Source: Acutalibacteraceae bacterium (lineage in GTDB: Bacteria; Bacillota; Clostridia; Oscillospirales; Acutalibacteraceae). Taken from it: DNA of 64,000 nucleotides. Below, piece by piece: positions 14,269 through 36,487 of this stretch. The notes under the pieces are model-generated. The model made no database searches. It saw nothing but the letters and a program-made list of their open reading frames with translations, and was not told the DNA's origin. The position numbers were made by a program, and so were the translations under genes. Every line of letters starts with the position of its first letter. The stretch's first letter is position 1. Location: the NCBI GenBank assembly GCA_045642705.1, contig JAZUJK010000007.1, positions 31,736 to 95,735 on the forward strand, written 5' to 3'.

Positions 14269-15106
14269 CGTCAGCTACCCCCAAATAAGCCTCAATAACA
14301 AGTGGATTCTTCTGAATCTCACTTGGAACACCATCGGCAATCATCTTACCAAAGTCGATAACATAAATATGATCTGAGATATCCATAACGAGGTTCATAT
14401 GGTGCTCAATTAGGAATATTGTCAAATTATACTTGTCACGAATCTCCTTGATAAATGCTGCGAGTTCCTCTGTCTCCTGTGGATTCATACCAGCCGCTGG
14501 CTCGTCGAGGAGGAGAAGCTTTGGCTCGGATGCGAGCGCACGTGCAATCTCCAAGCGACGCTGAATACCATAAGGAAGGCTTGTCGCAATATCGTCCTTG
14601 AACGCATCAAGGCCCTGCTCGCGTAGGAGTTCCATTGTCTCCTCACGCATACGCTTCTCCTCCTTGGCATTGCCACGGAAGGTTGCGCTAAATACGTTTT
14701 GATTTGCACGCATATGCTTAGCAGTCAAAACGTTATCAAATACAGTCATACTCTTCCAGAGTCTGATGTTCTGGAATGTACGGGATATACCCTTTTCTGT
14801 AATCTTATCCGGTGTCAATGCAACAACCTCACCGAGGTACTTGTCGCCATTCTCACCGAGATAGTTCTTCTTCATCTTGCCTGATGGATGGTTGCGAACG
14901 ATAGGCTCGCCCATGAATTCAACAAGACCATTTGTAGGCTCATATACGCCTGTGATGCAGTTGAAGGCTGTTGTCTTGCCGGCACCATTTGGTCCGATAA
15001 GAGCTACAATCTTGCCCTCTGGAATATCGAGGGACAAATTGTTAACGGCAACGACACCGCCGAACTGCATTGTAATATTTTCTACATGGAGGACATTATC
15101 ACTCAT
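14261..15106 (-). CDS. livG: Branched-chain amino-acid ABC transporter ATP-binding protein (LivG type)
   Basis: Walker A GPNGAGKTT, a LivG-specific insertion after Walker A, signature LPYGIQRRLEIARAL and LLLLDEPAAG. Confidence 0.85.
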   Translation of the reverse strand: MSDNVLHVENITMQFGGVVAVNNLSLDIPEGKIVALIGPNGAGKTTAFNCITGVYEPTNGLVEFMGEPIVRNHPSGKMKKNYLGENGDKYLGEVVALTPDKITEKGISRTFQNIRLWKSMTVFDNVLTAKHMRANQNVFSATFRGNAKEEKRMREETMELLREQGLDAFKDDIATSLPYGIQRRLEIARALASEPKLLLLDEPAAGMNPQETEELAAFIKEIRDKYNLTIFLIEHHMNLVMDISDHIYVIDFGKMIADGVPSEIQKNPLVIEAYLGVADDE

Positions 15107-16283
15107 TTGTCTCGCCCTCCTTAATCTCTTTTACTTTTTTCTTACGCCTAAACAGATCCGGCAACTCCTTGTCGCCCATGATACCCTGACGGAAGAAAAG
15201 AACAACAATCATAATGATGATTGAGAAAACTACCATACGGAAACCGTTCTTTAAAAGTGGAACCTGAACGCCACCAATATACATTGGGTTGTCGAGGAAA
15301 CGAAGTAACCACTCTGAGCATGCGATATAGAGGAATGATGCGATGCAGCTACCTGATACAGAACCGATACCACCAATTACAACGATGAGAAGAATCTCAT
15401 AGGTCATAGCAGATGTAAATATTTTAGCCTGAACAGTTGATGCGAACATAGCAAAGAGTGCTCCACCAACGCCTGCGAAGAATGAACTGATGCAGAATGA
15501 AAGCATCTTGTGCTTCGCAAGATTGATACCCATAGCCTCTGCTGCTACCTCATCATCGCGGATTGCCTTGAATGCACGACCGTATGATGAATTGATAAGT
15601 AAAACTATGATTGCGATACAGATACCAGCAATCAAGATTGGTATAAATGAAGAGAGTCTAAATACAACCATCCCGCTATCGTTTCTGATATTAAAATCAG
15701 AAAATGTTGGATATGAACGAAGTGCATTTGCACCATTTGTAACTTTTCCAAGTTTGCCCCATTGGAAAATCGCACGTAGGATTTCAGCAAAACCAAGGGT
15801 AGCAATAGCAAGATAGTCACTCTTGAGTCTCAGTACTGGAAGTCCGATGAGGAATGCGAAGATAGCAGCAACAAGACCTGCTGCGATACATGCAAGAAGT
15901 ACTGTTACAATGAGACCAAATGTCTCACCGAAAATGCCCTTCATCGCATCCGTCAAACTAAATCCAATAGATGAGCCATCAAAGAGATAATAAATCGAAT
16001 CACGAAGGTCACCAGGAATTGTAAGAATAGCGTATGTATAAGCACCGAGAAGCATGAATCCTGCCTGGCCAAGTGAGAAGAGGCCAGTGAAACCATTAAG
16101 TAGGTTCATTGAAACTGCAACAAGTGAATAAACAGCGCCTTTTCGTATTACCGTAAACAAAGGGGATGTAAAACTAATTGTGTTTTCAAGAACAACCGTC
16201 AAAATAATTACTGCAAGTATTACAGATAAAGTAACGAGAGTTCCCACATCGACACGTTTTTTTTCATTCATCATATAGTTCAC
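15099..16283 (-). CDS. livM: Branched-chain amino-acid ABC transporter permease (LivM type)
   Basis: 394-aa polytopic ORF with LNGFTGLFSLGQAGFMLLGAY, typical of LivM. It overlaps the neighbouring liv genes. Confidence 0.8.
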   Translation of the reverse strand: MNYMMNEKKRVDVGTLVTLSVILAVIILTVVLENTISFTSPLFTVIRKGAVYSLVAVSMNLLNGFTGLFSLGQAGFMLLGAYTYAILTIPGDLRDSIYYLFDGSSIGFSLTDAMKGIFGETFGLIVTVLLACIAAGLVAAIFAFLIGLPVLRLKSDYLAIATLGFAEILRAIFQWGKLGKVTNGANALRSYPTFSDFNIRNDSGMVVFRLSSFIPILIAGICIAIIVLLINSSYGRAFKAIRDDEVAAEAMGINLAKHKMLSFCISSFFAGVGGALFAMFASTVQAKIFTSAMTYEILLIVVIGGIGSVSGSCIASFLYIACSEWLLRFLDNPMYIGGVQVPLLKNGFRMVVFSIIIMIVVLFFRQGIMGDKELPDLFRRKKKVKEIKEGETNE

Positions 16284-16288
16284 CCTCC

Positions 16289-17164
16289 TTAAACCTTATC
16301 AGTTACCTTTTCGCCAAAGATACCAGTAGGCTTAACTACAAGGATGATGATAAGAAGTGCAAATGTGAAAGCATCTGAGAATATTGAATAATCGGTACCC
16401 TTAATAAGGGTCTCACAGATACCGATGATAAATGCACCAATTACTGCACCCGGAATAGATCCGATACCGCCAAATACGGCAGCGACGAATGCCTTAAGTC
16501 CTGGCATAGCACCTGACAAAGGGACAACTGTAGGATAGTTTGTGAAATAAAGAAGGCTACCAACTGCTGCAAGGAATGAGCCAATGATGAATGTTACAGA
16601 GATTACTGAGTTAATCTTAACACCCATGAGCTGTGATGTCTCAAAGTCCTTGGATACAGCACGCATAGCAATACCAACCTTGGTATGGTTGATAAGTGTT
16701 GTAAGGAGCGCTACAAGGAGAATAACAAGTATTGGTGTAATAACTGTTACTACGCTTGTTGGCGCGCCAAGAATATGAATTGTATTAGAAATCCATGGTA
16801 TTCTTGTATATGTCTTAGGCTGTCCACCTGTTGCATAGAGTGCAACATTCTGGAGAAGATAGCTGACACCAATTGCTGAAATCATAACAGACATTCTTGG
16901 TGCTGAGCGGAGCGGTCTATATGCTGCACGTTCAATAATGAATCCGAGAAGGACTGTTAAGATGATAGAAATCGGAATGCTGAGATAGATTGGCAGAACA
17001 GTAGACATGTAAACTACGAGAAGTCCGGCAACCATGAATACGTCACCATGGGCGAAGTTGATAAGACGAAGTATGCCATAAACCATCGTATAACCGATAG
17101 CAATCAGAGCATACTGTCCACCAAGTGACACGCCGGAAAGTATCTGAGAAATAATAAATTCCAT
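16289..17164 (-). CDS. livH: Branched-chain amino-acid ABC transporter permease (LivH type)
   Basis: 291 aa, beginning MEFIISQILSGVSLGGQYALIAIGYTMVYGILRLINFAHGD, the canonical LivH N-terminus. Confidence 0.8.
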   Translation of the reverse strand: MEFIISQILSGVSLGGQYALIAIGYTMVYGILRLINFAHGDVFMVAGLLVVYMSTVLPIYLSIPISIILTVLLGFIIERAAYRPLRSAPRMSVMISAIGVSYLLQNVALYATGGQPKTYTRIPWISNTIHILGAPTSVVTVITPILVILLVALLTTLINHTKVGIAMRAVSKDFETSQLMGVKINSVISVTFIIGSFLAAVGSLLYFTNYPTVVPLSGAMPGLKAFVAAVFGGIGSIPGAVIGAFIIGICETLIKGTDYSIFSDAFTFALLIIILVVKPTGIFGEKVTDKV

Positions 17165-24206: not shown

Positions 24207-24245
24207 GAAAAGCCCTCAGTTTAAAAAACTGAGGGCTCTTTTTTA
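24207..24245. terminator. Bidirectional intrinsic terminator
   Basis: The stem AGCCCTCAGT / ACTGAGGGCT (24211-24220 / 24228-24237) is flanked by an A-run and a T-run. It lies between convergent operons. Confidence 0.75.
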
Positions 24246-24377: not shown

Positions 24378-27284
24378 TTATTTAATTTCAACAACTACCT
24401 TGCTTGCATGTTTAATTGATGCGCCTTGGTTAGTTTCAGTAATGAAACGAAGTGGACCGTCACTATTCGCTACCAGTCCTGTGTATCCTTCATCATTTTC
24501 ATCAAATACGAGTGGATAACCCTGTATTGCATAGCAGACTATAATTGGTTTTCGTGTACCATCTGCAGCAACAATACCCTTTTCCAATGCATCCATAGAG
24601 AAAATTGATAAGAAATCTTTGGAATAGTTATCAGATGCGACTGCTGAAACCTTAATTGGATTAGAAAGATCTACATCTGGGCCTACAGAAGCCTTAACAA
24701 GTTTCCATAGATTGATACCTTCGCAGACACCAAAGTCACGAACGAAATATTCCGTTCTTTCAACAAGATCCGTCATATTTTCCAGTTCTTCCAGTGTATA
24801 TTCATATGTCTTCTCTCCAGCACCTGTCTTTAATACAACTGAGAAAGTTTCTTTAAGGAATGGTGTATAGAGATCAGATGCGCTATGGTTCCAAGATGCC
24901 ATTTCTACTGCTGTTACTTCTACTTTCGCAACTGACTTCACTTTCTTACTATCAGATACGAACATAAGTGGTCCGTTATCTGTAAGTAGAGGTGAGCCAA
25001 CTTTCTTAGCCTGTGTTGTATCACCAACTCCGAAAGCAAGAAGTGGTGCGGACTTACCCTTTTCACCACGCAAATCACCGAGTTTAAAGGTTTCTTTTGA
25101 ACCATCAATTGATGTGATTATTACTTCACTTGCATTATAACGGAGACCAACATTTAGAAGAAGATCATACATTGGAATACCTCTGTATCTCTCCTTACCA
25201 TAGTCAAATGTCTTGGCCATCTTTTGCATACCTTCAAGGTCAGCAACTGTATATGCCTTCTTGGCATTTACACCCTCACCATAGAACTCTATTGTCTTAC
25301 CAGCAAGTACAGCAGCATCACCCTTTAAATGAGCATACTGGTCTGGTTCCACATTGACAACAATAGATGTGAGATTCTTAACATACTTATTTCCATCTGC
25401 CGTTGGAACAATAACCATAAGTGGTCCGCCAACATTGTCAACTTTGTATTCAGCGGGGTCGTTCTTTCCAAATGGATTTAGCTTATATGATGCAACATAT
25501 CCATCGCTATTCTCGTTTGGTACAAGAGGAGAGCCGTTCTTGGCGAATGCCACAATCGACTTCTGCTCAAAGAGATCCGAGAGTTCTACTTTGAGTTCAT
25601 CCTTACCATTTGAGAAAGTTACAGTACCATTTGTACCCGGGATACCAATTATATCTGAAAGCATAAATTCAAGATTTACGCCCTCATAGATATTGTCATC
25701 ATATACTGCTTTAACCTTAGCAGATTTTATCTGATTACTAGTTACATCCTCACCGTAGATTAGATCTTCAATTTTAGAAACAGTATATGAAGCATCAGAC
25801 AATACAGAACCGTCAACATTATTAACCTTAATCTGTACTTTATCCTGTGTATACTCCTGCTGTGCTTCAACACGAGATCCACTATGTGTTGAGAGTGTAT
25901 AGTTCGCACCAACAACTATATTGGAAAGGAACTGAATCTGATTGGAGCCATTTGCATGATTATAATCAATCTTACCAAAAATGACTCTCATTGGGCCGCC
26001 ATCGTTAGCAAGTCCAGGAACAAATCCTTCATCCTCGCTTGTGATTGTATACGGATAATTATTTACGCCATATGCAAGCATTACTGGATAACCTGTCTTT
26101 ACAAGGTCTGCATTAGTTGATACATATGTGCCATCATCAAGGTCAGCTGAATTCTTTTTATAATAACCAAAATTATTAGGATCAGAAAGCTGAGCCATTG
26201 TAAATTTCTCAGCAGATGTGTATCCATCTGACGCAGAGAAAGTTACTTTTGTCTTTTCAGCGTCAGCTCCAAGAGCCTCAGCACTTGGAACGCCACAATA
26301 CTGAAGGAATTTATAAAGTTCAAGTCCCTCATACTCATTTACATACCAATATGTATTATTTGCGAGTGAGTAGAAGTCCTTATATCCGAGACCGCCTTCC
26401 TTAACGGAACCGTCTCTATTGTGTTCAACAAGGGCCTCAAGCTGTTTTACAGTAAAATCAAGTTCATAACCAAGTGTTTTACCGCCAACAGAGATAATAT
26501 AATTTGTGAGGTTTTCATTTGCATAAGCCTCATTTGTTGCCTCACTGTGCTTAAATCCAGGAGTCTTCTCCTCCTCTACATAGAGGTAAGCACAGTTTGA
26601 GAATGTCTTATAGTTCTTGTTACTACCATACTTTGTATAGTTATATACAAGTTTTAAGCATCCATCCTCATTGTTGAGAACATCAATAAATCCTTGTGTA
26701 TGCTCACCCTTATTGGCACCGCTAAATACGTAAGGTGCCACTGTCTTACAGGCCTCATCGCCGATACCATAAGTAATAAGAACAGGCTGTTTATCATCAT
26801 GAGCCTTCTTAATATCGGCAAGAGTTAGAGTTGCAACATCTTCACGGTTCGCATTCTTAAATACAACTTTATAAGCAGTATCAGTCATAGAAATAGAATT
26901 ATCGCCATCACCCATATTATTAAGCAGGTAATAAACGTCAATTCCTTCATATGCTTTAAGACCTGTCTTATCCTTATAAAGACCACGTACAAGTCCTGCA
27001 TCTGTGTTTTCAAGTTCTTTTGTTGAGAATGGTACAGACGAGTCCATACCAGGTCCTTCTATCGTAAGTGTTGCACCAGTTATCGCATTGATATTGTAAG
27101 GGGTTTCTCCACCCTTACCGCCATTTGTAATATGCTTAAATGGTGAATTTGAAAAATCAACATTAGAAAAAAGTTTTACATCATACTTGCCACAAGCTGT
27201 CAGGCAAAACATGAACATGACAGCAAAGACAACTAATGAAACTATCCTAAACAAATTAGCCTTTTTCATTGATTTTTTCTCCAT
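24378..27284 (-). CDS. Large surface lipoprotein built from five SUOX/YedY-type Moco-domain-like modules (function unknown)
   Basis: 968 aa with a signal peptide and lipobox (MFCLTAC-GK). Five tandem modules share the blocks [FY]-T-x-x-x-[LI]-E, Y-x-G-[IVL]-x-[LVM], DG, [LIV][LV]A[YF], GGP[LM] and K-x-[VL]-x-x-[IV]-x-V. It overlaps the upstream gene by 14-29 nt; an alternative start MKKANLF lies at 27269. Confidence 0.55.
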   Translation of the reverse strand: MEKKSMKKANLFRIVSLVVFAVMFMFCLTACGKYDVKLFSNVDFSNSPFKHITNGGKGGETPYNINAITGATLTIEGPGMDSSVPFSTKELENTDAGLVRGLYKDKTGLKAYEGIDVYYLLNNMGDGDNSISMTDTAYKVVFKNANREDVATLTLADIKKAHDDKQPVLITYGIGDEACKTVAPYVFSGANKGEHTQGFIDVLNNEDGCLKLVYNYTKYGSNKNYKTFSNCAYLYVEEEKTPGFKHSEATNEAYANENLTNYIISVGGKTLGYELDFTVKQLEALVEHNRDGSVKEGGLGYKDFYSLANNTYWYVNEYEGLELYKFLQYCGVPSAEALGADAEKTKVTFSASDGYTSAEKFTMAQLSDPNNFGYYKKNSADLDDGTYVSTNADLVKTGYPVMLAYGVNNYPYTITSEDEGFVPGLANDGGPMRVIFGKIDYNHANGSNQIQFLSNIVVGANYTLSTHSGSRVEAQQEYTQDKVQIKVNNVDGSVLSDASYTVSKIEDLIYGEDVTSNQIKSAKVKAVYDDNIYEGVNLEFMLSDIIGIPGTNGTVTFSNGKDELKVELSDLFEQKSIVAFAKNGSPLVPNENSDGYVASYKLNPFGKNDPAEYKVDNVGGPLMVIVPTADGNKYVKNLTSIVVNVEPDQYAHLKGDAAVLAGKTIEFYGEGVNAKKAYTVADLEGMQKMAKTFDYGKERYRGIPMYDLLLNVGLRYNASEVIITSIDGSKETFKLGDLRGEKGKSAPLLAFGVGDTTQAKKVGSPLLTDNGPLMFVSDSKKVKSVAKVEVTAVEMASWNHSASDLYTPFLKETFSVVLKTGAGEKTYEYTLEELENMTDLVERTEYFVRDFGVCEGINLWKLVKASVGPDVDLSNPIKVSAVASDNYSKDFLSIFSMDALEKGIVAADGTRKPIIVCYAIQGYPLVFDENDEGYTGLVANSDGPLRFITETNQGASIKHASKVVVEIK

Positions 27285-27873: not shown

Positions 27874-28434
27874 TTATTCAGCAACAATTTCTACTACATA
27901 CTTTGCATAGAATTCAGATGTCTCTTCAAGGCATGGTGCGAACCAAACTGTTCCATCTTCGCCTGTCTCTTTATTCTTCTCAATAGCAACAAGAGTATAA
28001 GGAGCGTTCTCTTCTGTAATTACGAATGGTGCATCACTCTCGTGACCATCACTGCACTTAGCAGTAATCTTAGTTGCATTTTCACAACCAGCTGCCTTCA
28101 AAACGTCCTTGATTGCATATCCGCCATATGTAGCTTCCTTAGTATTGCCTGATGAATTTGTTGTTTCTACTGTAATCTTGTAGAAAGAGCAATCTTTAAG
28201 ATCTGCATTTGTGATAGCTTTACCATTTACTTTGAATGAGAAATCACCAACAGTTACTTTGTCTGTTGCATCTTTGATTTCTGGAGCACCATCATTAGTT
28301 GGCGCCTGGCTAGCTGGCTCTGAAGCTGCTGGCTTAGAAGGCTCTTCTGGAGCAGCTGGAGCCTTAGCGCATGCTGCAAAGCTAAGTACCATAACAAGTG
28401 AAAGTACGAGTGCGAGAATTTTTGAAAGTTTCAT
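27874..28434 (-). CDS. Lipoprotein with one copy of the module repeated in the 968-aa protein
   Basis: The lipobox is SFAAC-AK, followed by a Pro/Ala-rich linker. The domain reads FSFKVNGKAITNADLKD...ATYGGYAIKDVLKAAG...DG...YTLVAIEKN...AKYVVEIV. The RBS AAAGGGG lies upstream. Confidence 0.5.
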   Translation of the reverse strand: MKLSKILALVLSLVMVLSFAACAKAPAAPEEPSKPAASEPASQAPTNDGAPEIKDATDKVTVGDFSFKVNGKAITNADLKDCSFYKITVETTNSSGNTKEATYGGYAIKDVLKAAGCENATKITAKCSDGHESDAPFVITEENAPYTLVAIEKNKETGEDGTVWFAPCLEETSEFYAKYVVEIVAE

Positions 28435-28463: not shown

Positions 28464-29243
28464 TCAAATGTTAGGAGGAATAATAATATCCCTACCAACA
28501 TCATCTACAAATTTTAGTTTTAGTTTAGTTCCATAAACTCTCTTTAAGGTTTCTTCAGTAATTATTTTGTCGCTGTCACCAACCGTTAGGTGGCCATCTC
28601 TATCAAGGATAGCAGTTGTACCGCCAAGCATAATTGCATGATCGGGATTGTGCGTTGTAATAATAATTGCGTAGCCTTTCTCTTTTAATGATTTAATCAT
28701 CTTGAGAGTCTTTAACTGATTTCCAAAATCGAGATGAGACGTTGGCTCATCGAAAAGAATAGCGCGAGGCTCTTGGACAAGTGCTCTTGCAATTGTTGCC
28801 TGCTGACGCTCACCACCAGAAATTTCTGTATATGGCTTATCCGCGAGTCCAGCAATACCAACTTCTTCCAATGCTTTCTCAACCAATTCAAAATCATACG
28901 CATGTGGTCGTTCAAACATGCCAATCTTAGGAGCGCGTCCCATAAGTACAAAGTTGAACACTGTATATGAAAAAGCTGGTGTATGCGTCTGTGGCACGTA
29001 GCTTAAAATGGAAGCCACTTCCTTCGGCTTCATTTTAGTTGTATCCTTGCCACAGAGTTTGATTGTACCGCTATCTGGTTTGTTCAGTGCAGCAAGCAAA
29101 TTAAGTAATGTACTCTTGCCCGCTCCGTTTGGGCCGAGTATCGAAATTACTTGTCCTTCATCAAGTGTAAGTGACACATCGTGAAGTATTTGCCTATCGT
29201 TCTTGTTATACGAAAAGTTTATATTCTCTGCTTCTATAATCAT
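28464..29243 (-). CDS. ABC transporter ATP-binding protein, FecE/FhuC/BtuD type
   Basis: Walker A GPNGAGKST, signature ISGGERQQATIARAL and Walker B ILFDEPTSHLD. 259 aa. Confidence 0.85.
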   Translation of the reverse strand: MIIEAENINFSYNKNDRQILHDVSLTLDEGQVISILGPNGAGKSTLLNLLAALNKPDSGTIKLCGKDTTKMKPKEVASILSYVPQTHTPAFSYTVFNFVLMGRAPKIGMFERPHAYDFELVEKALEEVGIAGLADKPYTEISGGERQQATIARALVQEPRAILFDEPTSHLDFGNQLKTLKMIKSLKEKGYAIIITTHNPDHAIMLGGTTAILDRDGHLTVGDSDKIITEETLKRVYGTKLKLKFVDDVGRDIIIPPNI

Positions 29244-30316
29244 GTCAGTGTCTTCCTTTGCCTATATAGAAGTATTGCATAGAACGGAGCTCCGATAAGA
29301 CCTGTCAAGATGCTTACAGGCATCTCTGCAACACTTATCGTCCTTGTTATCGTATCAACAAGAAGTAAGAATATACCACCCATCAGTCCCGCTGCTGGGA
29401 TAAGTTTTGTATTGTTAGGACCAACTATCATTCGAGCAAAATGTGGAATTACAAGTCCTATCCAACCGATTGTACCTGAAATACAAACCGCACTTGCAGT
29501 CATCAGTGTTGCACAAGCAATAGCAATATTTCTTACAATCACAATGTTGGCACCGAGTGACTTGGCCTCTGACTCACCCATGGATAAGATATCTAGCCAC
29601 CAAGACATAGCAAAGAGAATGATACAAGGAATAATCATTGTCCAGATTACTCCACCTATCTCATCGAGTGTTACATATGAGAAACTACCCATTGTCCAAT
29701 AAGTGATTGCTGCAAGTTCAGTCTCCGGATCAGCAACATATTTAATGAAGCCCAATATTGAACTCATCGCTCCTCCGACAATTACACCGGACAGTACCAA
29801 CATAATATTGGAGTCTGATTTCATAACGGACGGAATCATAACAGTTATTGTTACTGCTAAAATGCCACCAATAAATGCAAAAATTGACAAATATAGTCCC
29901 GAGAGGCCCATAAGGATCGCAATTGCAGCACCTATACATGCACCATTTGACACGCCGAGGAAGTCAGGTGATACAAGTGGGTTTTTGAAAATGCTCTGGT
30001 ATGATACACCTGAAATAGCCAGCATCATTCCACATAGTACGCTTGCCACGATTCGCGGAATTCTAAGACCAATTACAACATTTCTTGTCATCTCGGAGTA
30101 GGAGCCACCCCTACCAAAGAGTTCTCCGAAAAGCACTTCAATACTTTCCTTTGGAGTAATAGGATACTTTCCAGCACAGAGAGCAATCACTATACAAATT
30201 GCAAGAATAGCAAGCAAGAGAATGTCAAAACCTATTGCATAAAAAGTGCTTCTATTTGATTTTTTTGTTACTTTAGAAGCTGTATCCAATCTCATCACCT
30301 GTGAATGTTCTTCCAT
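29240..30316 (-). CDS. FecCD-family ABC permease (iron-chelate/heme/cobalamin type)
   Basis: 358-aa polytopic ORF with RIPRIVASVLCGMMLAISG, GASIGAA-like blocks and the C-terminal GAPFYAILLYRQRK typical of FecCD/BtuC. The true start may lie downstream of 30316. Confidence 0.85.
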   Translation of the reverse strand: MEEHSQVMRLDTASKVTKKSNRSTFYAIGFDILLLAILAICIVIALCAGKYPITPKESIEVLFGELFGRGGSYSEMTRNVVIGLRIPRIVASVLCGMMLAISGVSYQSIFKNPLVSPDFLGVSNGACIGAAIAILMGLSGLYLSIFAFIGGILAVTITVMIPSVMKSDSNIMLVLSGVIVGGAMSSILGFIKYVADPETELAAITYWTMGSFSYVTLDEIGGVIWTMIIPCIILFAMSWWLDILSMGESEAKSLGANIVIVRNIAIACATLMTASAVCISGTIGWIGLVIPHFARMIVGPNNTKLIPAAGLMGGIFLLLVDTITRTISVAEMPVSILTGLIGAPFYAILLYRQRKTLT

Positions 30317-31316
30317 ATAGGAATGAATAATAATTATCTATCTTTTCCTGAAGCATATCATTTGGTACTTTATCAGGATATAAGCGATTCATCATATAGT
30401 ACATAGCTAATATGAAACCTGGGCCTGGCATATCCCAAGAATCAAATTTTGCAGGAATCTGAGAGATGCTATGAGTCTTGACAGCACTTACTGCGCTCCA
30501 AGCAGAATCCTCATAGAAATCTCCCATTTTATAATCAAGTACCGTAGAACTTGTAACGAAAATATATTCTGGGTTGAGTTCAAACACCTTTTCAACACCA
30601 CAGTCAGCCCAATATCTTTCCTCTTTACCTACGACACCATCCACAAGTGTCTTAGCACCAATACGCTTTAGCATTATTGTTTGAATCATATCTTCGCCAG
30701 CAATACGTGAAAAACGAGATCCAAGGCAAATAGCAGTAATCTTATCATCTTCCTTGATAGTTGCTGCAAGAGCATCTATCTCATCGAGTTCGCCTTGAAT
30801 ATAGTCATTAATCTCTTTTGCTCGTGCCTCAACACCAAAGATCTGTCCAAACATTGTATAAGCTTTCATTACTTCCTCTGGAGTCTCAGCAGACAAAGTA
30901 ATTGATGGAATACCAAGTGTGGCTGCTATTTCAATCTTAGGAGTATCTGAAATTCTACATATATAAACGCTAGGATTTATGGTTGCAAGTGCTTCTTGGT
31001 CAAGTGTATTCGTTGTACCAATATTACCTGTACCAACTATCACCTCATCACACAACCTATAGAATGACTTATTCTTAAAATTACATGCAACTACTCTATC
31101 AGAGAGGTTAAGCGTAGATAAGAATGGAGTTGCTACACCATAAGTTGAAGCAATAGTAGTTGACTTTGTATCCTTAGGCACTTGTACTTCCCGTCCCGCC
31201 ATATCTGTGACAGTTATTGTATTATTGTCAGTTTGCGACTCAGTCTGTCTCCCTGCACAAGAAGCTAGAGAGAAACACATAACGATTACGAGCAGTAAAG
31301 AGATATACTTTTTCAA
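30273..31316 (-). CDS. Peripla_BP_2-type substrate-binding lipoprotein (siderophore/heme/cobalamin class)
   Basis: The lipobox is SLASC-AG. It has the two-lobe pattern with the terminal ...SWDMPGPGFILAMYYM. I set the start at the TTG (31316) after GGAGG. The longer ORF (to 31367) would translate through the leader terminator hairpin. Confidence 0.8.
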   Translation of the reverse strand: MKKYISLLLVIVMCFSLASCAGRQTESQTDNNTITVTDMAGREVQVPKDTKSTTIASTYGVATPFLSTLNLSDRVVACNFKNKSFYRLCDEVIVGTGNIGTTNTLDQEALATINPSVYICRISDTPKIEIAATLGIPSITLSAETPEEVMKAYTMFGQIFGVEARAKEINDYIQGELDEIDALAATIKEDDKITAICLGSRFSRIAGEDMIQTIMLKRIGAKTLVDGVVGKEERYWADCGVEKVFELNPEYIFVTSSTVLDYKMGDFYEDSAWSAVSAVKTHSISQIPAKFDSWDMPGPGFILAMYYMMNRLYPDKVPNDMLQEKIDNYYSFLYGRTFTGDEIGYSF

Positions 31317-31328
31317 AATAATTCCTCC

Positions 31329-31365
31329 AAAACAAAAAGTGGACTTCTCAGAGAGAGAAGTCCAC
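31329..31365 (-). terminator. Intrinsic terminator inside the 5' leader (attenuator)
   Basis: The stem GUGGACUUCUC / GAGAAGUCCAC (31365-31355 / 31349-31339) is followed by UUUUUGUUUU. It sits 10 nt upstream of the RBS of the SBP gene. Confidence 0.65.
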
Positions 31366-31494
31366 ATATGTTATCTAGTATACTCTGCCCTCTTTTCAAT
31401 AAGGAAGGTGAATTCGTTTCCAAATCCGCCCCGGTCAAGAACCCATGGCAAAATGCTTTAGGGTAAATGACTCGAAAGCTATTATTTAATTTAC
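31366..31494 (-). promoter_or_regulatory. Unclassified structured leader (candidate riboswitch/attenuator aptamer region)
   Basis: ~130 nt lie between the predicted TSS and the terminator. The 5' AUCUAG can pair with CUAGAU ~130 nt downstream, enclosing the hairpin GGUAAAU...AUUUACC and a GC-rich core (GACCGGGGCGGAUUUGGAAACGAAUUCACC). I see no B12 box and no other riboswitch signature I recognise. Confidence 0.35.
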
Positions 31495-31500
31495 CTAGAT

Positions 31501-31529
31501 ATTATACAACACAATTGTATCAAAAGCAA
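31501..31529 (-). promoter_or_regulatory. Promoter of the ABC/lipoprotein operon
   Basis: TTGCTT (31529-31524), 17 nt, TATAAT (31506-31501). Confidence 0.55.
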
Positions 31530-31542
31530 TTATGTATTTTTC

Positions 31543-32796
31543 TTAATCGAGGCCACGCTCATCAAAGCGGAATGCAGTCTCAAGAAGTGTGTTGATGCCT
31601 GCCTTGATTGTGCGCTCATCGAGATTGTCTGCTGTGTCAAGACGTGTGTGATAATAGCGAGCTGGAGTTGGATCCATTGCTGCGAGGCAGCAAGCTTTCA
31701 TACCACCCTGAGCAAGAGCTGCAGCATCTGATGAACCAAAGAATACATTTGCATAAGGAAGGTCAAGACCAGCAGTCTTAGAACACTCCTTAACAAGTGC
31801 AGCTGTCTTGGCATCAAGCTTTACAGTGCCTGTCATATCCTTGTTATAGATACCCATGAAATCAAAGTCACGAAGTGTATCTGTGCATACTGCGATTGTC
31901 TCGATACCTGAGTCGGCATATTCCTTGGCATGCTTCTTAACGAAAGCCTTGGCACCGCGGAGACCAGCCTCCTCAGATGACATTGAAATAGATACAACCT
32001 CTGTATTTTCGAAACGGATATCATTGTCATTTAAGTACTGCATAACAGCCATAGATGCGAAAACACCTGAGAGGTTATCGTTAGCGCCATCAACACAAAT
32101 GCTCCAGTTCATAAAGAAGAGAACGAGTATCATTGCAGGAACTGAAAGAATTGCGAAAATCTTGGCAACGATAGTAAACCAAGTAGCTGCAACGCCACAT
32201 ACTGTGAGGATTACGATAACAAGATCTGCAACGAGGCATACAATGCCAGTTGCGATAATTGCTGTAAGTAAATGTCCGCCACCGAGATATGTATAGCGCC
32301 ACTCCCAAGCTGAATCAACATGTCCAGAGAAAATGATACGGCGTTTTGTCTCGCCTGCAGCTTTTCTTGTACATACTACATTATATGCATCCTTCTTAGG
32401 GAAAAGTGGATCGAGCAATTCCTTATAGAAAAGAAACTCACCGAGAATACATACTACAGAAATAACTGTTAGGATAAGTGCAACAATGGCAAGAGCTGTT
32501 ATTGGCTTTACGAAGAAGTAGATGATGAGAAGAACTGCTGTAATTAGCATGCATATACCATCTACAAGTACCCATCCCATAAAAGCCTTAGGATGAAGTG
32601 TAAAGTCCTCTTTATCAATCTTATCAGCAACTTTACCCATGTGGTCAATTACATAATCCTGAGCCTTGTGCTCCTCTGGATAACCAGATGCACGACCACC
32701 GCACATATCAATTACTGTCTTAATCTGAGTCTTGACATAATCTGTATACTTATCAAGTTGCTCATCATAGTTTTTTACGCTTTCTTTTGCAAGCAT
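31543..32796 (-). CDS. M28-family metallopeptidase with membrane-spanning insertions (paralog 2)
   Basis: The M28 ligand set is readable: FSGHVDSAW, DGANDNLSG, SSEEAGLRG, GSSDAAA and YYHTRLD. About 6 TM helices are inserted before and between GHVDS and DGANDN. Confidence 0.65.
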   Translation of the reverse strand: MLAKESVKNYDEQLDKYTDYVKTQIKTVIDMCGGRASGYPEEHKAQDYVIDHMGKVADKIDKEDFTLHPKAFMGWVLVDGICMLITAVLLIIYFFVKPITALAIVALILTVISVVCILGEFLFYKELLDPLFPKKDAYNVVCTRKAAGETKRRIIFSGHVDSAWEWRYTYLGGGHLLTAIIATGIVCLVADLVIVILTVCGVAATWFTIVAKIFAILSVPAMILVLFFMNWSICVDGANDNLSGVFASMAVMQYLNDNDIRFENTEVVSISMSSEEAGLRGAKAFVKKHAKEYADSGIETIAVCTDTLRDFDFMGIYNKDMTGTVKLDAKTAALVKECSKTAGLDLPYANVFFGSSDAAALAQGGMKACCLAAMDPTPARYYHTRLDTADNLDERTIKAGINTLLETAFRFDERGLD

Positions 32797-32814
32797 TAAA
32801 AAACATCTCCCTTT

Positions 32815-32848
32815 TATATTATAAGAGGCTAGGCATTCGCCTAGCCTC
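32815..32848 (-). terminator. Hairpin / weak terminator between the two M28 paralogs
   Basis: The stem GAGGCTAGGC / GCCTAGCCTC (32825-32834 / 32839-32848) is followed on the minus strand by UUAUAAUAUAAAA. The U-tract is poor, and the sequence may also carry a TATAAT box. Confidence 0.4.
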
Positions 32849-32860
32849 AGTTAAATCAAA

Positions 32861-34102
32861 TTACTGCTTTGCGCCCTCATCGAACTTATCAAGTACACGA
32901 ACAGATACTGCATAGCAATCTGCAAGTCCCTTGTTATCCATGTTGTCATATGAGTCACGGCGTGTATGATAGTAATTCTCAAGCTTGTGGTTAAGTCCTG
33001 TAATACCTGTTGAACGGAAACCGCCCTGTGCAAATGCTGCATTATCTGTAGCACCGCCAAGTGGTGGAACCATACCCTTCTTGCACTGGATATTAAGTTC
33101 CTGTGCTGCTTCCATGAAGAGGTCAGATACATCCTTATCAGCCTTAACTGTTGCATTGAGGTCACGATAGTTAGTAAGAAGATACTTAGGATCGTGAATT
33201 GTATCATAAGAATAAATGAATGTTGGAACATCCTGGAACTCACCCTTGTGAGCTTCGCACCATGCCTTAGAACCACGGAGACCAGCTTCCTCTGAACCGG
33301 AGAGGATAACGCCTACTTCTGTGTTCTCAAGCTCGATGCCTGCATCCTTCATAGCCTTGAGGATTGCAATACCCATGTAGCAACCAGAAAGGTTGTCGTT
33401 AGCACCATCAACGATGCGATAACGGTTCCACATAAAGAACATATAAATCCAGAAAGGAACGAAGATAAGTCCGATATAAGCCATCTTAGCAATTGTAGAT
33501 GTAAGACCAGCTACAAGAATAGCGATATCAAGACCAAGATAATAAAGTGTACCAATAGCTGAGATAATGATAAGTCCCTCAAAGAGAATACCACCACCGA
33601 GGTAGTTTGCTGGCCACTCCCAAGCTGCGTCCTGGTGACCGTTGAAGAAAATTCTTCTCTTAACTTCACCCTTGCAAGACTTGATAGCTGTAACGTTAGT
33701 ACCAACCTTCTTTGGGAACATAAAGTCTACAACTTTCTTGTAGAGACCGAACTGAAGAAGTGCAAGAATCCAACCGAAAAGAATACAAGCAATACCAACG
33801 ATTGCTGCAACCTTGCTACCTGGGCAAAGTGGGATAAGAATAAGTGCGATGAAGCAAAGTGTGAATGTGATATGAATCCAGCCATAGAATGAACCTGGGT
33901 TCTCATCAAATGACTCGATGTCAACCTTTTCACATCCGCAGTCATTCTTCAATACATCTGCCATGTATTCACTTGCAAGTCTCTCACCCTCTGAACCTGG
34001 ATCTCTCTTAGGCAAATTCTTACAAATGTGAGTAATCTCGTTTACGATATACTCTGCGCTTTTGTCCTTCTCTGCAATTAAAGCGTCAAATTTTTCACTC
34101 AT
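32861..34102 (-). CDS. M28-family metallopeptidase with membrane-spanning insertions (paralog 1)
   Basis: It has the same motif set as its neighbour: FNGHQDAAW, DGANDNLSG, GSEEAGLRG, GATDNAA and YYHTRRD, with the same TM architecture. Confidence 0.65.
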   Translation of the reverse strand: MSEKFDALIAEKDKSAEYIVNEITHICKNLPKRDPGSEGERLASEYMADVLKNDCGCEKVDIESFDENPGSFYGWIHITFTLCFIALILIPLCPGSKVAAIVGIACILFGWILALLQFGLYKKVVDFMFPKKVGTNVTAIKSCKGEVKRRIFFNGHQDAAWEWPANYLGGGILFEGLIIISAIGTLYYLGLDIAILVAGLTSTIAKMAYIGLIFVPFWIYMFFMWNRYRIVDGANDNLSGCYMGIAILKAMKDAGIELENTEVGVILSGSEEAGLRGSKAWCEAHKGEFQDVPTFIYSYDTIHDPKYLLTNYRDLNATVKADKDVSDLFMEAAQELNIQCKKGMVPPLGGATDNAAFAQGGFRSTGITGLNHKLENYYHTRRDSYDNMDNKGLADCYAVSVRVLDKFDEGAKQ

Positions 34103-34201: not shown

Positions 34202-36487
34202 TTACATATCGAGATAAGAGTCAGAATAGAGCTCGTTATTCTTGAATATGTCACAGGACTTAATTGTCTCCATAAGTCTCTTGTCACATGGGTTTACGAT
34301 AGCAGATGTAAGACCCTGCATCATACACATAGCAACGAGAGCTGAGTCCATAATTGGACGAACTTCCTTAGGAGCGCCGTTTGAGTTGTTAGAAAGACCA
34401 CCTGTTGACTTGAGTCCCTCATCAGCGAACATCTTGATAGCAGCAAGTACATCCATCTGCTTATCCTGCATGCCCTTTACAACGAGGAAGAGTGGGTCAA
34501 ACCAGAGATCATCTGACTCCATGCCGAGTGACATACCGAGGTCGAGCATCTTATGGCAGTGAGCCATGCGCTCCTCGTTGTCCTTAGCAATACCATCAGC
34601 TGAGCAAAGTGCGATACAGATAGCATCATTTGCAGCAGCAAGATTGATGTTATCAATACGTGAGCCAGCATCAGCTGAGTTTACGATTGGCTTACCATTT
34701 GTACGGTTATATACCTTGATACCAGCCTCGATAGCCTTCTTGTTAGCTGTATCGAGAGCAAGTGGCACGTTGTTGAAGTTCTCCTGGAGAAGTTTAACAG
34801 CCCAAGTCATAAGCTCAGGACCATTTGACTCTGCAGGTCCGATATTAACATCAAGATATGTTGCGCCGGCAGCAATCTGCTCAGCAGCTCTCTTGAGGAT
34901 TGGCTCTGGATCCATGTTATCCATAGCAGCCTTGATTGTAGGGCTGATGCAGTGGATACGCTCACCAATTGTTACGAACTTGTTAGAATCAACATTTCTT
35001 GTCTTGTACTGAACGCCCATATCAACAACCTTGATTTCTGGGATGCTTGCAGCGATCTTATCGAAATCAAGTGGTGCGTTCTCGTCTACCACCTTGGCCT
35101 CAGCCGTAGGTGCATCAGCCTTCTGAGCAGCAACTGCCTCTGCAGCCTTCTTATACTCGCCATCCTTGAGATACTTAACGATCTCAACAGCTTCACGAGT
35201 ACCAACTACAACATTCCACTCAGGAAGTTTGTCAGCGATTTCGCCCTTCATAACTGCAACCTTACCAGGGAGGATAAGTGTGCGGCTGTTGATCTTAGAT
35301 GCTACATCGAATTCCTCAAATGTCTTCTTAACAGAAGATGATGAGAACTTACCAGCAGCCCAAGCTGTAAGTACTGACATACCAGATGCATCAGTGATAA
35401 GAAGGTTTACTGGAACCTTAGAACGCTCAAGTTCACCTGTAACAAGGAAATATGTAAGAGCGAAGTCAACTGTGAGCATAACTGGATCATCAGGACCTGC
35501 ACCATTGATAGGATAGATACCTGGCTCAACCTTCATTGGCTTCTGAGGGTCAGTGTAGATATTCTGACGGAGACCATAAAGTGGAAGAGCCTCAGCCATT
35601 GTGATGTTTTCCATAACAATGATTGAACCATATTTAAGTGTGAAGAGTGCAGCATAAGCTGTCTGGAGATGTAAATCACCCTTAGCAAACTTAGGAAGTT
35701 TTACGATTGAAGGATAACCGAGTGACTTATCGCCATCCTTGATAGCGCCACGACGGCAGAATACAGCATTCTTGAGTGTTTCCTTAATATCAGCACCTGT
35801 GATGTTGATGATAAGATTCTTATTGCCTGCATCCTCGAGTGCCTTGATTGTGTCATAGATGTCCTCGATGCTGTCGCCACATACGCCAAGAGCGATGCCA
35901 GCAGCAGTAGCGATTTCGTTCATTGCGGCAAAGTTGTCCTTGTTAGCACCGCAGAGAACTGGCTTAGTATCCTTAATAGCGTCGATAGCAGCTTTTGCAA
36001 CAGCAGCATCTGTTGTCTCAACGATAACAGTACGGCCTGTTGCAGCAGCCTTCTTAGCGAGTTCTACGAGCTTGTCGCCCTCGCCGTGAACAAATACTGT
36101 CTCAACGAATTCGCGCTCGCCGATACGCTCGTAATCAATTTTCTTGAGTCCTTCAAGTTTTTCATCAATTGCAGCATCGTCCATGCATGTGCATACAGGA
36201 ACTGCAAATACGTTCTTGGAAACGAGTGTCTTCTCGTGACGGTAGAGAACTGTCTCACCACCGAGTGTGATTTCAGCATCTCCTGCGCCGATTTTGATTG
36301 TCTTCATTGCTGGAGCTGTAGCCTCAGAAAGAAGAGCCTTAGCCTCGTCAGACATATGTGGGCACTGATCAATTGATACTGCACCCTGAGCAACCTTCAT
36401 GCAGAAAGCCATACATGTTGGGCTTCCGCACTCCTTACAGTTTGTCTTAGGAGATAACTTGAAAATATCTAGTCCTTTAACAGCCAT
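34202..36487 (-). CDS. acsC-acsE: Fusion of the corrinoid iron-sulfur protein large subunit (AcsC) with the methyl-H4folate:corrinoid methyltransferase (AcsE/MeTr, pterin-binding domain)
   Basis: In aa 1-~445 I read the N-terminal 4Fe-4S motif CKECGSPTCMAFC...QCPH followed by the AcsC/CdhE TIM-barrel and Rossmann-type body. Residues ~446-502 are an Ala/Lys-rich linker. Residues ~503-761 read as a pterin-binding barrel (GERIHC..., GATYLDVNIG, ALDT, VNSA, FDPL, GLSNNSNG). It is a single uninterrupted 761-codon ORF. Confidence 0.8.
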   Translation of the reverse strand: MAVKGLDIFKLSPKTNCKECGSPTCMAFCMKVAQGAVSIDQCPHMSDEAKALLSEATAPAMKTIKIGAGDAEITLGGETVLYRHEKTLVSKNVFAVPVCTCMDDAAIDEKLEGLKKIDYERIGEREFVETVFVHGEGDKLVELAKKAAATGRTVIVETTDAAVAKAAIDAIKDTKPVLCGANKDNFAAMNEIATAAGIALGVCGDSIEDIYDTIKALEDAGNKNLIINITGADIKETLKNAVFCRRGAIKDGDKSLGYPSIVKLPKFAKGDLHLQTAYAALFTLKYGSIIVMENITMAEALPLYGLRQNIYTDPQKPMKVEPGIYPINGAGPDDPVMLTVDFALTYFLVTGELERSKVPVNLLITDASGMSVLTAWAAGKFSSSSVKKTFEEFDVASKINSRTLILPGKVAVMKGEIADKLPEWNVVVGTREAVEIVKYLKDGEYKKAAEAVAAQKADAPTAEAKVVDENAPLDFDKIAASIPEIKVVDMGVQYKTRNVDSNKFVTIGERIHCISPTIKAAMDNMDPEPILKRAAEQIAAGATYLDVNIGPAESNGPELMTWAVKLLQENFNNVPLALDTANKKAIEAGIKVYNRTNGKPIVNSADAGSRIDNINLAAANDAICIALCSADGIAKDNEERMAHCHKMLDLGMSLGMESDDLWFDPLFLVVKGMQDKQMDVLAAIKMFADEGLKSTGGLSNNSNGAPKEVRPIMDSALVAMCMMQGLTSAIVNPCDKRLMETIKSCDIFKNNELYSDSYLDM

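Follow-up and report, generated by a model that had tools for sequence, protein, structure and literature searches.

The 64,000-nucleotide window analysed here comes from an Acutalibacteraceae bacterium (assembly GCA_045642705.1, contig JAZUJK010000007.1, positions 31,736-95,735 of the forward strand) and carries a six-gene operon whose last gene encodes P0001, a 968-residue lipoprotein of five tandem SUOX-like modules. The operon begins with the gene for a substrate-binding protein (SBP), and its genes overlap or are separated by gaps of at most 29 nucleotides. It holds a complete type II (BtuCD/FecCD) importer of the ATP-binding cassette (ABC) class, with permease, SBP and ATPase, and is preceded by a riboswitch aptamer of the molybdenum or tungsten cofactor (Moco/Tuco) class. 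The features of the locus are listed below in order of transcription, with positions of the window.

31501..31529 (-): promoter-like site, TTGCTT-17 nucleotides-TATAAT, identified by consensus alone
31373..31489 (-): Moco/Tuco riboswitch aptamer RF01055, P3-less; 61.3 bits against a gathering score of 36, aligned over all of the model (1-135) except for the deleted P3 hairpin
31329..31365 (-): intrinsic terminator, an 11-bp GC-rich stem GTGGACTTCTC/GAGAAGTCCAC followed by TTTTTGTTTT
30273..31316 (-): SBP lipoprotein (Peripla_BP_2, PF01497), Pfam 53.5 bits, lipobox LASC; start TTG at 31316 after the ribosome-binding site GGAGG
29240..30316 (-): FecCD/BtuC-type (type II) ABC permease, PF01032 278 bits; NCBIfam BtuC/FhuB about 190 bits, below the cut-offs
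28464..29243 (-): ABC ATPase, PF00005 114.6 bits
27874..28434 (-): P0002, 186-residue lipoprotein with one SUOX/PruR-like module; weak Pfam match, 15.8 bits
27256..27873 (-): P0003, 205-residue FMN_bind lipoprotein with the motif D169-AVTSAS; PF04205 17.3 bits, below the cut-off
24378..27284 (-): P0001, 968-residue lipoprotein with signal and lipobox at residues 1-31, flavinylation motif N66-AITGAT72 and five SUOX/PruR-like modules
27069..27089 (-): NAITGAT codons (residues 66-72 of P0001), a candidate ApbE flavinylation site that matches the C-terminal part of FMN_bind
24208..24240 (-): strong terminator closing the operon, a 15-bp stem and T tract, 138 nucleotides after the P0001 stop codon

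Five homologous modules on a lipid anchor

The open reading frame at 24378-27284 (-) translates without a stop into 968 residues. Its N-terminus, MEKKSMKKANLFRIVSLVVFAVMFMFCLTAC, is a Sec-type lipoprotein signal that has the lipobox LTAC and lacks a twin arginine. The original prediction, made from the DNA letters alone, divided this protein into five tandem modules with a recurring motif series and proposed internal homology as the check. That check fails with single sequences and succeeds with profiles. A blastp search of P0001 against itself returns the self-match only, and phmmer comparisons between modules, although in register, give independent E-values of 1e-7 to 0.9, so that single-sequence comparison is nearly blind to the repeats. 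Profiles were taken from an alignment of 41 full-length orthologs (47-75% identity), cut at the predicted module limits. With these, hhalign joins all 10 module pairs at probabilities of 83-98% and E-values of 9e-6 to 2e-14, the closest pairs being modules 2 and 5 and modules 3 and 4. Mutual homology of the five modules is confirmed because profile-profile comparison establishes the repeats where single sequences fail.

Global hhalign alignments also reproduce the predicted motif series collinearly in all modules, in the order [FY][ST]xxx[LI]E, [YC]-x-G-[ILV]-x-[LVM], D-G/N, A-[YF], G-P-[LM] and a final strand; in module 1, N-D-D-G-C-L-K replaces N-x-G-G-P-[LM]-[RKM]. An AlphaFold2 model of P0001, with a mean predicted local distance difference test score (pLDDT) of 83.8, contains five compact alpha/beta units at residues ~85-240, 262-460, 480-647, 662-793 and 812-968, the cores of which had been marked correctly. 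The one-module paralog claimed at 27874-28434 is likewise real. Its ortholog in a related locus, L019, has two modules in 333 residues (PF00174, 38.4 bits), and both halves align to P0002, at 48% and 33% identity. Source annotations of P0001 relatives read 'molybdopterin-dependent oxidoreductase', 'YedYZ catalytic subunit' or hypothetical.

Relation to SUOX enzymes and to PruR

Whole P0001 matches the Pfam family Oxidored_molyb (PF00174) at 44.8 bits against a cut-off of 24, and the family is recognised in single modules for module 3 (E = 7e-5) and module 4 (E = 1.4e-3). Foldseek places the P0001 model with SUOX molybdoenzymes of the PDB, namely SorA (2blf), nitrate reductase (2bih), plant sulfite oxidase (1ogp) and YedY/MsrP (1xdq), at E-values of 6e-7 to 3e-4. 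A sequence profile of the whole family finds nothing among PDB chains at E <= 1; only fold comparison makes the connection. A DUF4430/transcobalamin-like fold was considered for the modules and rejected, as neither Pfam nor Foldseek gives such a match. The modules are thus degenerate SUOX/Moco-domain-like units on a lipid anchor, as had been proposed, by Pfam score, Foldseek and lipobox alike.

The best fits of single whole chains to the model are PruR structures (7kp2, 7kou, 7kom and 7rkb), with TM-scores normalised to the target of 0.64-0.70 and root-mean-square deviations of 3.0-3.4 Å over about 150 columns. PruR has the SUOX fold with the Mo-ligating Cys lost and the Moco cleft truncated, and has been shown experimentally to be an exported, non-enzymatic pterin binder (PMC11194511). 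The idea that the fold has been re-used for binding gains weight from this match.

Whether the modules retain a molybdenum ligand was read against E. coli MsrP. Alignment by hhalign pairs YRGIPMYDLL of module 4 with W155-IGFPLHKLL of MsrP, and GPLMFV and VKSVAKVEVT of P0001 with APVRLIVP and IKSIVSIKLT. The register is fixed by modules 3 and 4 only, modules 1, 2 and 5 giving chance-level local matches, and was carried from there to all five modules by the inter-module hhalign alignments. In the MsrP precursor the ligand Cys146 (RMRCVEAWS) lies nine residues N-terminal of W155. Modules 1-4 have no Cys within the 25-45 residues that precede [YC]-x-G. On sequence grounds, the Sec-type signal and the missing ligand Cys exclude an ordinary Moco oxidoreductase, in agreement with the original prediction. 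D-G-Y in module 2 and D-N-Y in module 5 are invariant, on a strand that appears to correspond to that of the motif N-x-Y (N102-x-Y104) of A. tumefaciens PruR; modules 1, 3 and 4 differ here. No counterpart of W160, which with this motif forms the PruR pterin sandwich, or of the PW motif was identified in the modules.

The SUOX molybdoenzymes (YedY/MsrP 1xdq/1xdy, SorA 2blf, 1ogp, 2bih) and P0001 share the fold, the motifs W/Y-x-G-[VIF]-P-[LM] and G-x-P-[VLM]-R, and the final strand. In contrast to these enzymes, P0001 lacks the Mo-ligating Cys in modules 1-4, carries five copies per chain, has no dimerisation or haem domains, is exported through Sec to a lipid anchor instead of being cytoplasmic or a Tat substrate, and is encoded in a genome without Moco synthesis. 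With PruR the modules have in common a minimal SUOX fold of ~140 residues, export, a non-enzymatic character and a short Cys-less hairpin where the enzymes carry the Mo-ligating Cys. PruR, however, is a single domain of Proteobacteria (Agrobacterium, Vibrio, Klebsiella), is paired with the cyclic di-GMP enzyme DcpA, and binds small pterins of the folate branch as a signal. In the P0001 family, one, two or five modules, and at most about nine, stand in tandem on clostridial lipoproteins, and their partners are importers, flavin-binding proteins and a Moco/Tuco riboswitch. No DcpA-type diguanylate cyclase/phosphodiesterase is among the operon neighbours, which are the ABC importer and FMN_bind lipoproteins.

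Riboswitch, neighbouring genes and flavinylation

An Rfam scan of the 64-kb window detects one element only, the RF01055 aptamer upstream of the transporter genes and on their sense strand, and no second match to this family exists elsewhere in the whole genome. The leader runs from the promoter-like site through the aptamer and the terminator hairpin to GGAGG and the TTG start. In the predicted fold of a transcript cut before the 3' arm of the terminator, the 3' strand of P1 (AGAGGG) pairs into the 5' arm and loop of the terminator. Because an independent terminator is combined with an antiterminator that uses the P1 3' strand, the leader fits the usual layout of an OFF switch. P3-less members of the Moco riboswitch class track tungsten-cofactor metabolism, and only the E. 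coli member of the class has been experimentally tested (Regulski et al., PMC2408646).

The start of the SBP at TTG 31316, which lies 17 codons downstream of the longest-open-reading-frame start, opens a lipoprotein signal, MKKYISLLLVIVMCFSLASC. Among solved structures the SBP is closest to 4hn9, which is described as an 'iron complex' SBP (E = 4e-32), and it also matches IsdE weakly.

The operon has many relatives. A pattern scan over one genome per species finds a P0001-type protein in 107 genomes, mostly of Oscillospiraceae and other Clostridia, with one metagenome-assembled genome (MAG) of Coriobacteriales; the isolates Christensenella sp. MSJ-20 and Lutispora saccharofermentans are among the carriers. 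The neighbourhoods of 80 loci were compared by tblastn with the window's proteins. About half of them share a recurrent order of riboswitch, five-module gene, SBP, permease, ATPase, two-module protein, a 229-residue rhodanese-like lipoprotein and an FMN_bind lipoprotein, often with an NTPase; the gene for the rhodanese-like lipoprotein lies inside the operon in 41 loci. The predicted tie to ABC importers therefore holds, with importer genes in the same operon as P0001 and a conserved linkage. Rfam recognises the riboswitch in three of seven loci tested. A covariance model made from five riboswitch examples and run on all 80 loci gives 45 matches in about 40 of them, mostly 60-350 nucleotides upstream of the five-module gene and on its strand, and an intrinsic terminator follows the aptamer in all 10 other leaders examined. 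Association with the Moco/Tuco sensor is thus a direct and conserved trait of this protein family and no peculiarity of the window.

Related loci differ in the genes that they add. The L012 operon, with a five-module protein 84% identical to P0001, encodes XdhC, of the Moco-chaperone family of xanthine dehydrogenase maturation, together with a lipoprotein phosphoesterase of the Metallophos family, a radical SAM protein and a 240-residue lipoprotein. In L019 a gene for aldehyde:ferredoxin oxidoreductase (AOR) lies immediately upstream. In Lutispora (L062, 6897-15805) the riboswitch precedes a 1690-residue protein of SUOX modules and a Reg_prop beta-propeller, and a one-module protein. L074:6900-15739 has a similar architecture, with the riboswitch before a 1709-residue protein of SUOX modules and beta-propeller, a one-module protein and further open reading frames of 526 and 404 residues. 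Its adjoining operon encodes a membrane-anchored nucleotide pyrophosphatase, the S component of an energy-coupling factor (ECF) importer, a one-module SUOX protein, EcfA, EcfA', EcfT, MobB and a kinase-like protein. Because the FecCD operon and the ECF operon of L074 both carry SUOX modules, the same receptor fold appears to serve two importer classes that are unrelated to each other and are each typical of cofactor uptake. The XdhC, MobB, AOR and surface phosphoesterase genes of these loci point to a pterin (di)nucleotide cofactor.

Three further arrangements were recorded. In a Tepidanaerobacteraceae MAG, tandem Moco/Tuco aptamers (L068:6433-6804; 6433-6553 and 6683-6804) precede a large SUOX-module gene, and the genome, which lacks MoaC and MoeA alike, has three AOR genes. 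Two five-module paralogs share one locus (L041:8001-10952 and 14414-17056) in an Anaerovoracaceae MAG with six AOR genes and no MoaC/MoeA. In Christensenella sp. MSJ-20 a second riboswitch (L026:12205-12319) stands within the cluster, between the SBP and two-module genes, and no permease/ATPase gene is nearby.

Two proteins of the operon are probably flavoproteins. The motif [DN]-x-x-[ST]-[GS]-A-[ST] is present on the exported lipoproteins P0001 (N66-AITGAT72) and P0003 (D169-AVTSAS). In P0001 it lies in a region of about 50 residues that matches no more of FMN_bind than its C-terminal part; all 41 orthologs retain A71 and T72, and 34 of them the strict motif. The P0003 ortholog of L019 scores 24.8 bits with PF04205. 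An ApbE gene is present in the window's genome (G000:C4:82925-83773, 241 bits), as in all 13 genomes tested, this one included. The motif on exported lipoproteins and ApbE in the genome are shared with known ApbE-flavinylated proteins (PplA, RnfG/NqrC-type FMN_bind), and covalent flavin mononucleotide (FMN) is predicted on both P0001 and P0003. Flavinylated extracytosolic proteins are known to co-localise with importers, there for iron; a term search of the main text of that survey finds no mention of molybdenum, FecCD or ABC transporters (Meheust et al. 2021, PMC8238504).

The rhodanese-like component is encoded elsewhere in this species. At G000:C21:156302-157577 (L086:10302-11577, minus strand) a gene for a 232-residue lipoprotein, P0125, is followed by one for a second FMN_bind lipoprotein (194 residues). 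Cys159 of P0125 is invariant, and the protein shares 64-66% identity with the lipoprotein whose gene lies within the operon in 41 other loci; in this species the two genes appear to have been relocated from the operon. P0125 matches no Pfam or NCBIfam family, and a sequence search of the PDB returns noise. Its model (pLDDT 85) gives weak Foldseek matches, almost all to rhodanese-fold proteins, and one source annotation calls a relative a rhodanese-related sulfurtransferase. A role as sulfur carrier toward the dithiolene is conceivable from the modelled fold.

Two tandem paralogs of the M28 peptidase family (417 and 413 residues; window 31543-34102, minus strand) lie directly upstream of the riboswitch promoter, outside the riboswitch-controlled unit. 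At 34202-36487 (minus strand) lies a 761-residue open reading frame that joins CdhD, the large subunit of the corrinoid Fe-S protein, with its N-terminal Fe-S motif, to a Pterin_bind methyltransferase domain, an AcsC-AcsE-type fusion of the carbon monoxide dehydrogenase/acetyl-CoA synthase (CODH/ACS) cluster. The corrinoid Fe-S protein genes of this island raised B12 uptake as a candidate function for the operon; it was rejected, the riboswitch being of the Moco class and not of the cobalamin class.

Proposed capture and import of cofactor, and the alternatives

The genome context bears directly on what the operon may transport. The assembly has 1.52 Mb in 26 contigs and is 97.1% complete. Family searches of the whole genome find no MoaC, MoaE or MoeA_N and no Molybdopterin domain of the DMSO-reductase family (PF00384). 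A tblastn search of the genome with MoaA, MoaE, MoaB, MoeA, MoeA-PBP, MoaC and XdhC of L012 yields nothing beyond one MoeA-like fragment, treated below. Three intact AOR genes of 586-679 codons are nevertheless retained. Within the genus, 16 of 18 species representatives have MoaC, including MAGs that are 55-85% complete; the two without it are the window's genome and one other, which is 97% complete. Of 50 other carriers, 49 have AOR. In our reading, the system as a rule coexists with biosynthesis; this species, and probably a few others, would have lost the latter and kept the AORs, the sensor and the operon.

The genome also has CODH/ACS genes and no PF00384 protein, hence no recognisable formate dehydrogenase, and a formate transporter adjoins a hydrogenase. 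Its Wood-Ljungdahl pathway may be incomplete and formate-dependent.

From the PruR fold, the importer operon, the Moco/Tuco riboswitch and AORs without cofactor genes, we infer that P0001 is probably the capture arm of an uptake system. The operon would capture and import extracellular tungsto- or molybdopterin cofactor through an Isd-like surface relay, with P0001 as main receptor and the covalent-flavin and rhodanese-like partners conditioning the cofactor; we give this reading a probability of roughly 0.55. A wider claim falls a little short of an even chance. It holds that gut and digester Clostridia import the intact W/Mo pyranopterin cofactor by way of riboswitch-controlled tandem SUOX/PruR modules, that covalent surface flavins and a rhodanese-like lipoprotein keep the labile molecule reduced or repair it ahead of uptake, and that some species, this one included, have lost all biosynthesis and are auxotrophs.

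Under this proposal, shortage of cofactor would leave the P3-less riboswitch unliganded and permit read-through of the terminator, so that the six genes are expressed, as the RNA architecture and the E. coli precedent suggest. Four lipoproteins (SBP, one-module, FMN_bind and five-module), whose lipoboxes are evident, would be exported through Sec and lipidated on the outer face of the membrane. The PruR-like modules may then bind extracellular Tuco, Moco or molybdopterin released by other organisms and hand it on to the type II (BtuCD/Isd-type) importer's SBP, perhaps with the one-module protein as intermediary, by analogy with the succession IsdH/B-IsdA-IsdC-IsdE-IsdF. More speculatively, P0001 (at Thr72) and the FMN_bind lipoprotein would both receive FMN from ApbE, and the flavins, NapH-like conduits in some genomes and the rhodanese-like lipoprotein could keep the oxidation-prone pterin-dithiolene reduced or repair it. 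This would echo the preference of PruR for tetrahydropterin (PMC11194511). Equally speculatively, cofactor in dinucleotide form could be trimmed by the phosphoesterases that relatives carry on their surface. Imported cofactor would be loaded into the three AORs, and a rising pool would shut the operon through the riboswitch. In most relatives the system would work alongside de novo synthesis, like B12 and thiamine importers, and in this genome it would be the sole source of cofactor.

The Isd haem relay of Gram-positive bacteria relies on multi-NEAT haem receptors, sortase anchoring and Fur control. Both that relay (IsdH/IsdB, IsdA/IsdC, IsdE, IsdF), as well as BtuG/BtuFCD, and the present system combine surface proteins of tandem cofactor modules with a Peripla_BP_2 lipoprotein and a FecCD importer. 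In contrast to the NEAT fold, sortase anchor and Fur control of Isd, the P0001 system has the SUOX fold, a lipid anchor, a riboswitch, flavin and rhodanese-like partners, and a different presumed cargo. The interpretation in the original prediction is thus partly supported. Its description of the modules as cofactor-less probably puts the emphasis in the wrong place, since the evidence favours a pterin cofactor bound as cargo, and nothing in the data supports the suggested adhesion. The riboswitch, the flavinylation motif, the PruR match and the missing biosynthesis genes were missed or underspecified.

Several observations weigh against capture of the intact cofactor. The cargo and the ligand of every component are putative. 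MoaC is present in 41 of the 50 other carriers, so salvage is not obligatory; a general rule that carriers lack MoaC failed on this count, and was kept only for this genome, one congener and eight MAGs. Of the nine carriers without MoaC, eight also lack MoeA_N and each of these has one to six AOR genes; these eight are MAGs, and their number is not clearly above that expected from incompleteness alone. In the window's genome the absence of biosynthesis rests on a 26-contig draft, and the genes form a single operon in relatives, so one unassembled piece could hide them all. The single MoCF_biosynth match, a 233-residue protein corresponding to about residues 133-327 of MoeA (the molybdopterin-binding domain; G000:C13, L005:1267-1968), is encoded with an [FeFe] hydrogenase gene on one side and a FocA formate transporter gene on the other. 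This sole Moco-biosynthesis-like gene left could be a remnant or a cytosolic cofactor handler. The proposal does not account for two Cys residues of P0001, each invariant in the 41 orthologs: Cys854 of module 5 occupies the position of W155, not that of Cys146, and Cys209 of module 1 replaces the Pro of G-P-[LM]. Further points of this kind concern the SBP, the L012 neighbourhood and the Lutispora loci, and are given with the alternatives that they favour.

Uptake of metal is a serious alternative, although we consider it unlikely. Here a MolBC-A-like importer would take up tungstate, thiotungstate or a W/Mo chelate, with the surface proteins, flavins and rhodanese-like protein freeing or conditioning the metal for subsequent biosynthesis. 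Moco-class riboswitches classically govern molybdate/tungstate transporters (PMC2408646), and MolBC-A is a type II importer for these ions. The SBP matches its binding protein MolA/HI1472 (3psa) weakly, at E = 1.5e-6 and over the C-terminal 100 residues only, which is no better than its matches to nickel, haem and siderophore binders. The 41 carriers with MoaC make their own pterin, and in close relatives the five-module gene directly precedes a riboswitch and moaA-moaE-moaB-moeA-moaC (in L012 moaA-moaE-moaB-moeA-moeA/PBP-moaC), an adjacency that would suit a metal importer equally well. MolBC-A of Haemophilus influenzae (HI1470/71/72) thus shares the transporter class and the link to the Mo/W economy. 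However, it lacks pterin-fold receptors, flavoproteins and a riboswitch, and the window's SBP is closer to the 'iron complex' binder 4hn9. The receptor modules have the pterin-binding PruR/SUOX fold and not that of an oxyanion binder. Bare metal would be useless to a genome without MoaA, MoaC, MoaE and full-length MoeA, yet this one keeps three AORs and the riboswitch. The XdhC, MobB and surface phosphodiesterases of relatives are more readily understood if the cargo is a pterin (di)nucleotide than if it is an ion. Modules of this type are, moreover, coupled to an importer of the ECF (vitamin) type, for which we know of no oxyanion precedent.

An extracytosolic redox enzyme is improbable. P0001, the FMN_bind proteins and sometimes a NapH-like protein would form an electron chain to SUOX modules loaded with pterin or Moco, in the manner of MsrP/MsrQ, while the importer serves another purpose or supplies the product. 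The flavinylation motifs on P0001 and P0003 and the ApbE gene are compatible with such a chain, FMN_bind and flavinylated modules being hallmarks of extracytosolic electron transfer (PMC8238504), and the invariant Cys854 and Cys209 could be ligands. Lutispora-type loci favour this role: downstream of its riboswitch, L062 encodes an FMN_bind-Oxidored_molyb fusion and a NapH-like (Fer4_5) Fe-S membrane protein fused to FMN_bind, a set that would carry electrons all the way from the membrane to the pterin-fold modules, and such loci have no importer in the same operon. On the other side, P0001 carries no Tat signal, so that Moco loaded in the cytoplasm could not be exported with the protein, and the canonical Mo-ligating Cys is missing from modules 1-4. 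An aptamer and terminator that repress when cofactor is plentiful would be the wrong logic for a cofactor-dependent enzyme. The importer linkage is conserved across families, and the window's genome cannot make Moco for loading.

Binding or sensing of small non-Moco pterins (neopterin, monapterin or folate-type), or adhesion, with no tie to Mo/W cofactor supply, is very improbable: PruR, the best single-domain structural match, has small pterins as ligands and its N-x-Y has an apparent counterpart in D-[GN]-Y of modules 2 and 5, but the conserved upstream riboswitch class responds to Moco/Tuco rather than to folate or any other pterin, a DcpA-type signalling partner is missing, AOR accompanies the system in nearly all carriers with XdhC, MobB or Moco operons nearby, and nothing in the data points to adhesion. 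The remainder of the probability beyond these four readings belongs to something not considered.

Capture and import of the cofactor would combine a known principle with a new one. A riboswitch-controlled cofactor importer with a surface relay is of a known kind; the receptor fold would be new, as would a cargo without a known bacterial uptake system. Moco and Tuco are commonly regarded as too unstable for exchange between cells, and the known case of Moco uptake is that of nematodes feeding on bacteria. To our knowledge, no bacterial transporter or surface receptor for Moco/Tuco has been described, and literature searches on Moco riboswitch transporters, Moco salvage and uptake, auxotrophy and cross-feeding, and tungsten cofactor transporters found no such system.

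Even if the operon served metal uptake, it would represent a new and widespread architecture for tungsten acquisition. If it imports the cofactor, a salvage route would be in hand for the one major coenzyme that still lacks a known one, and it would be clear why tungsten enzymes occur in genomes devoid of moa/moe genes. Besides signalling by PruR, the SUOX fold would have another role outside catalysis. Tractable reagents would be at hand in the form of single modules, the SBP and carriers in culture (Christensenella sp. MSJ-20, Lutispora saccharofermentans). Moco/Tuco would join the cross-fed cofactors of gut and rumen communities.

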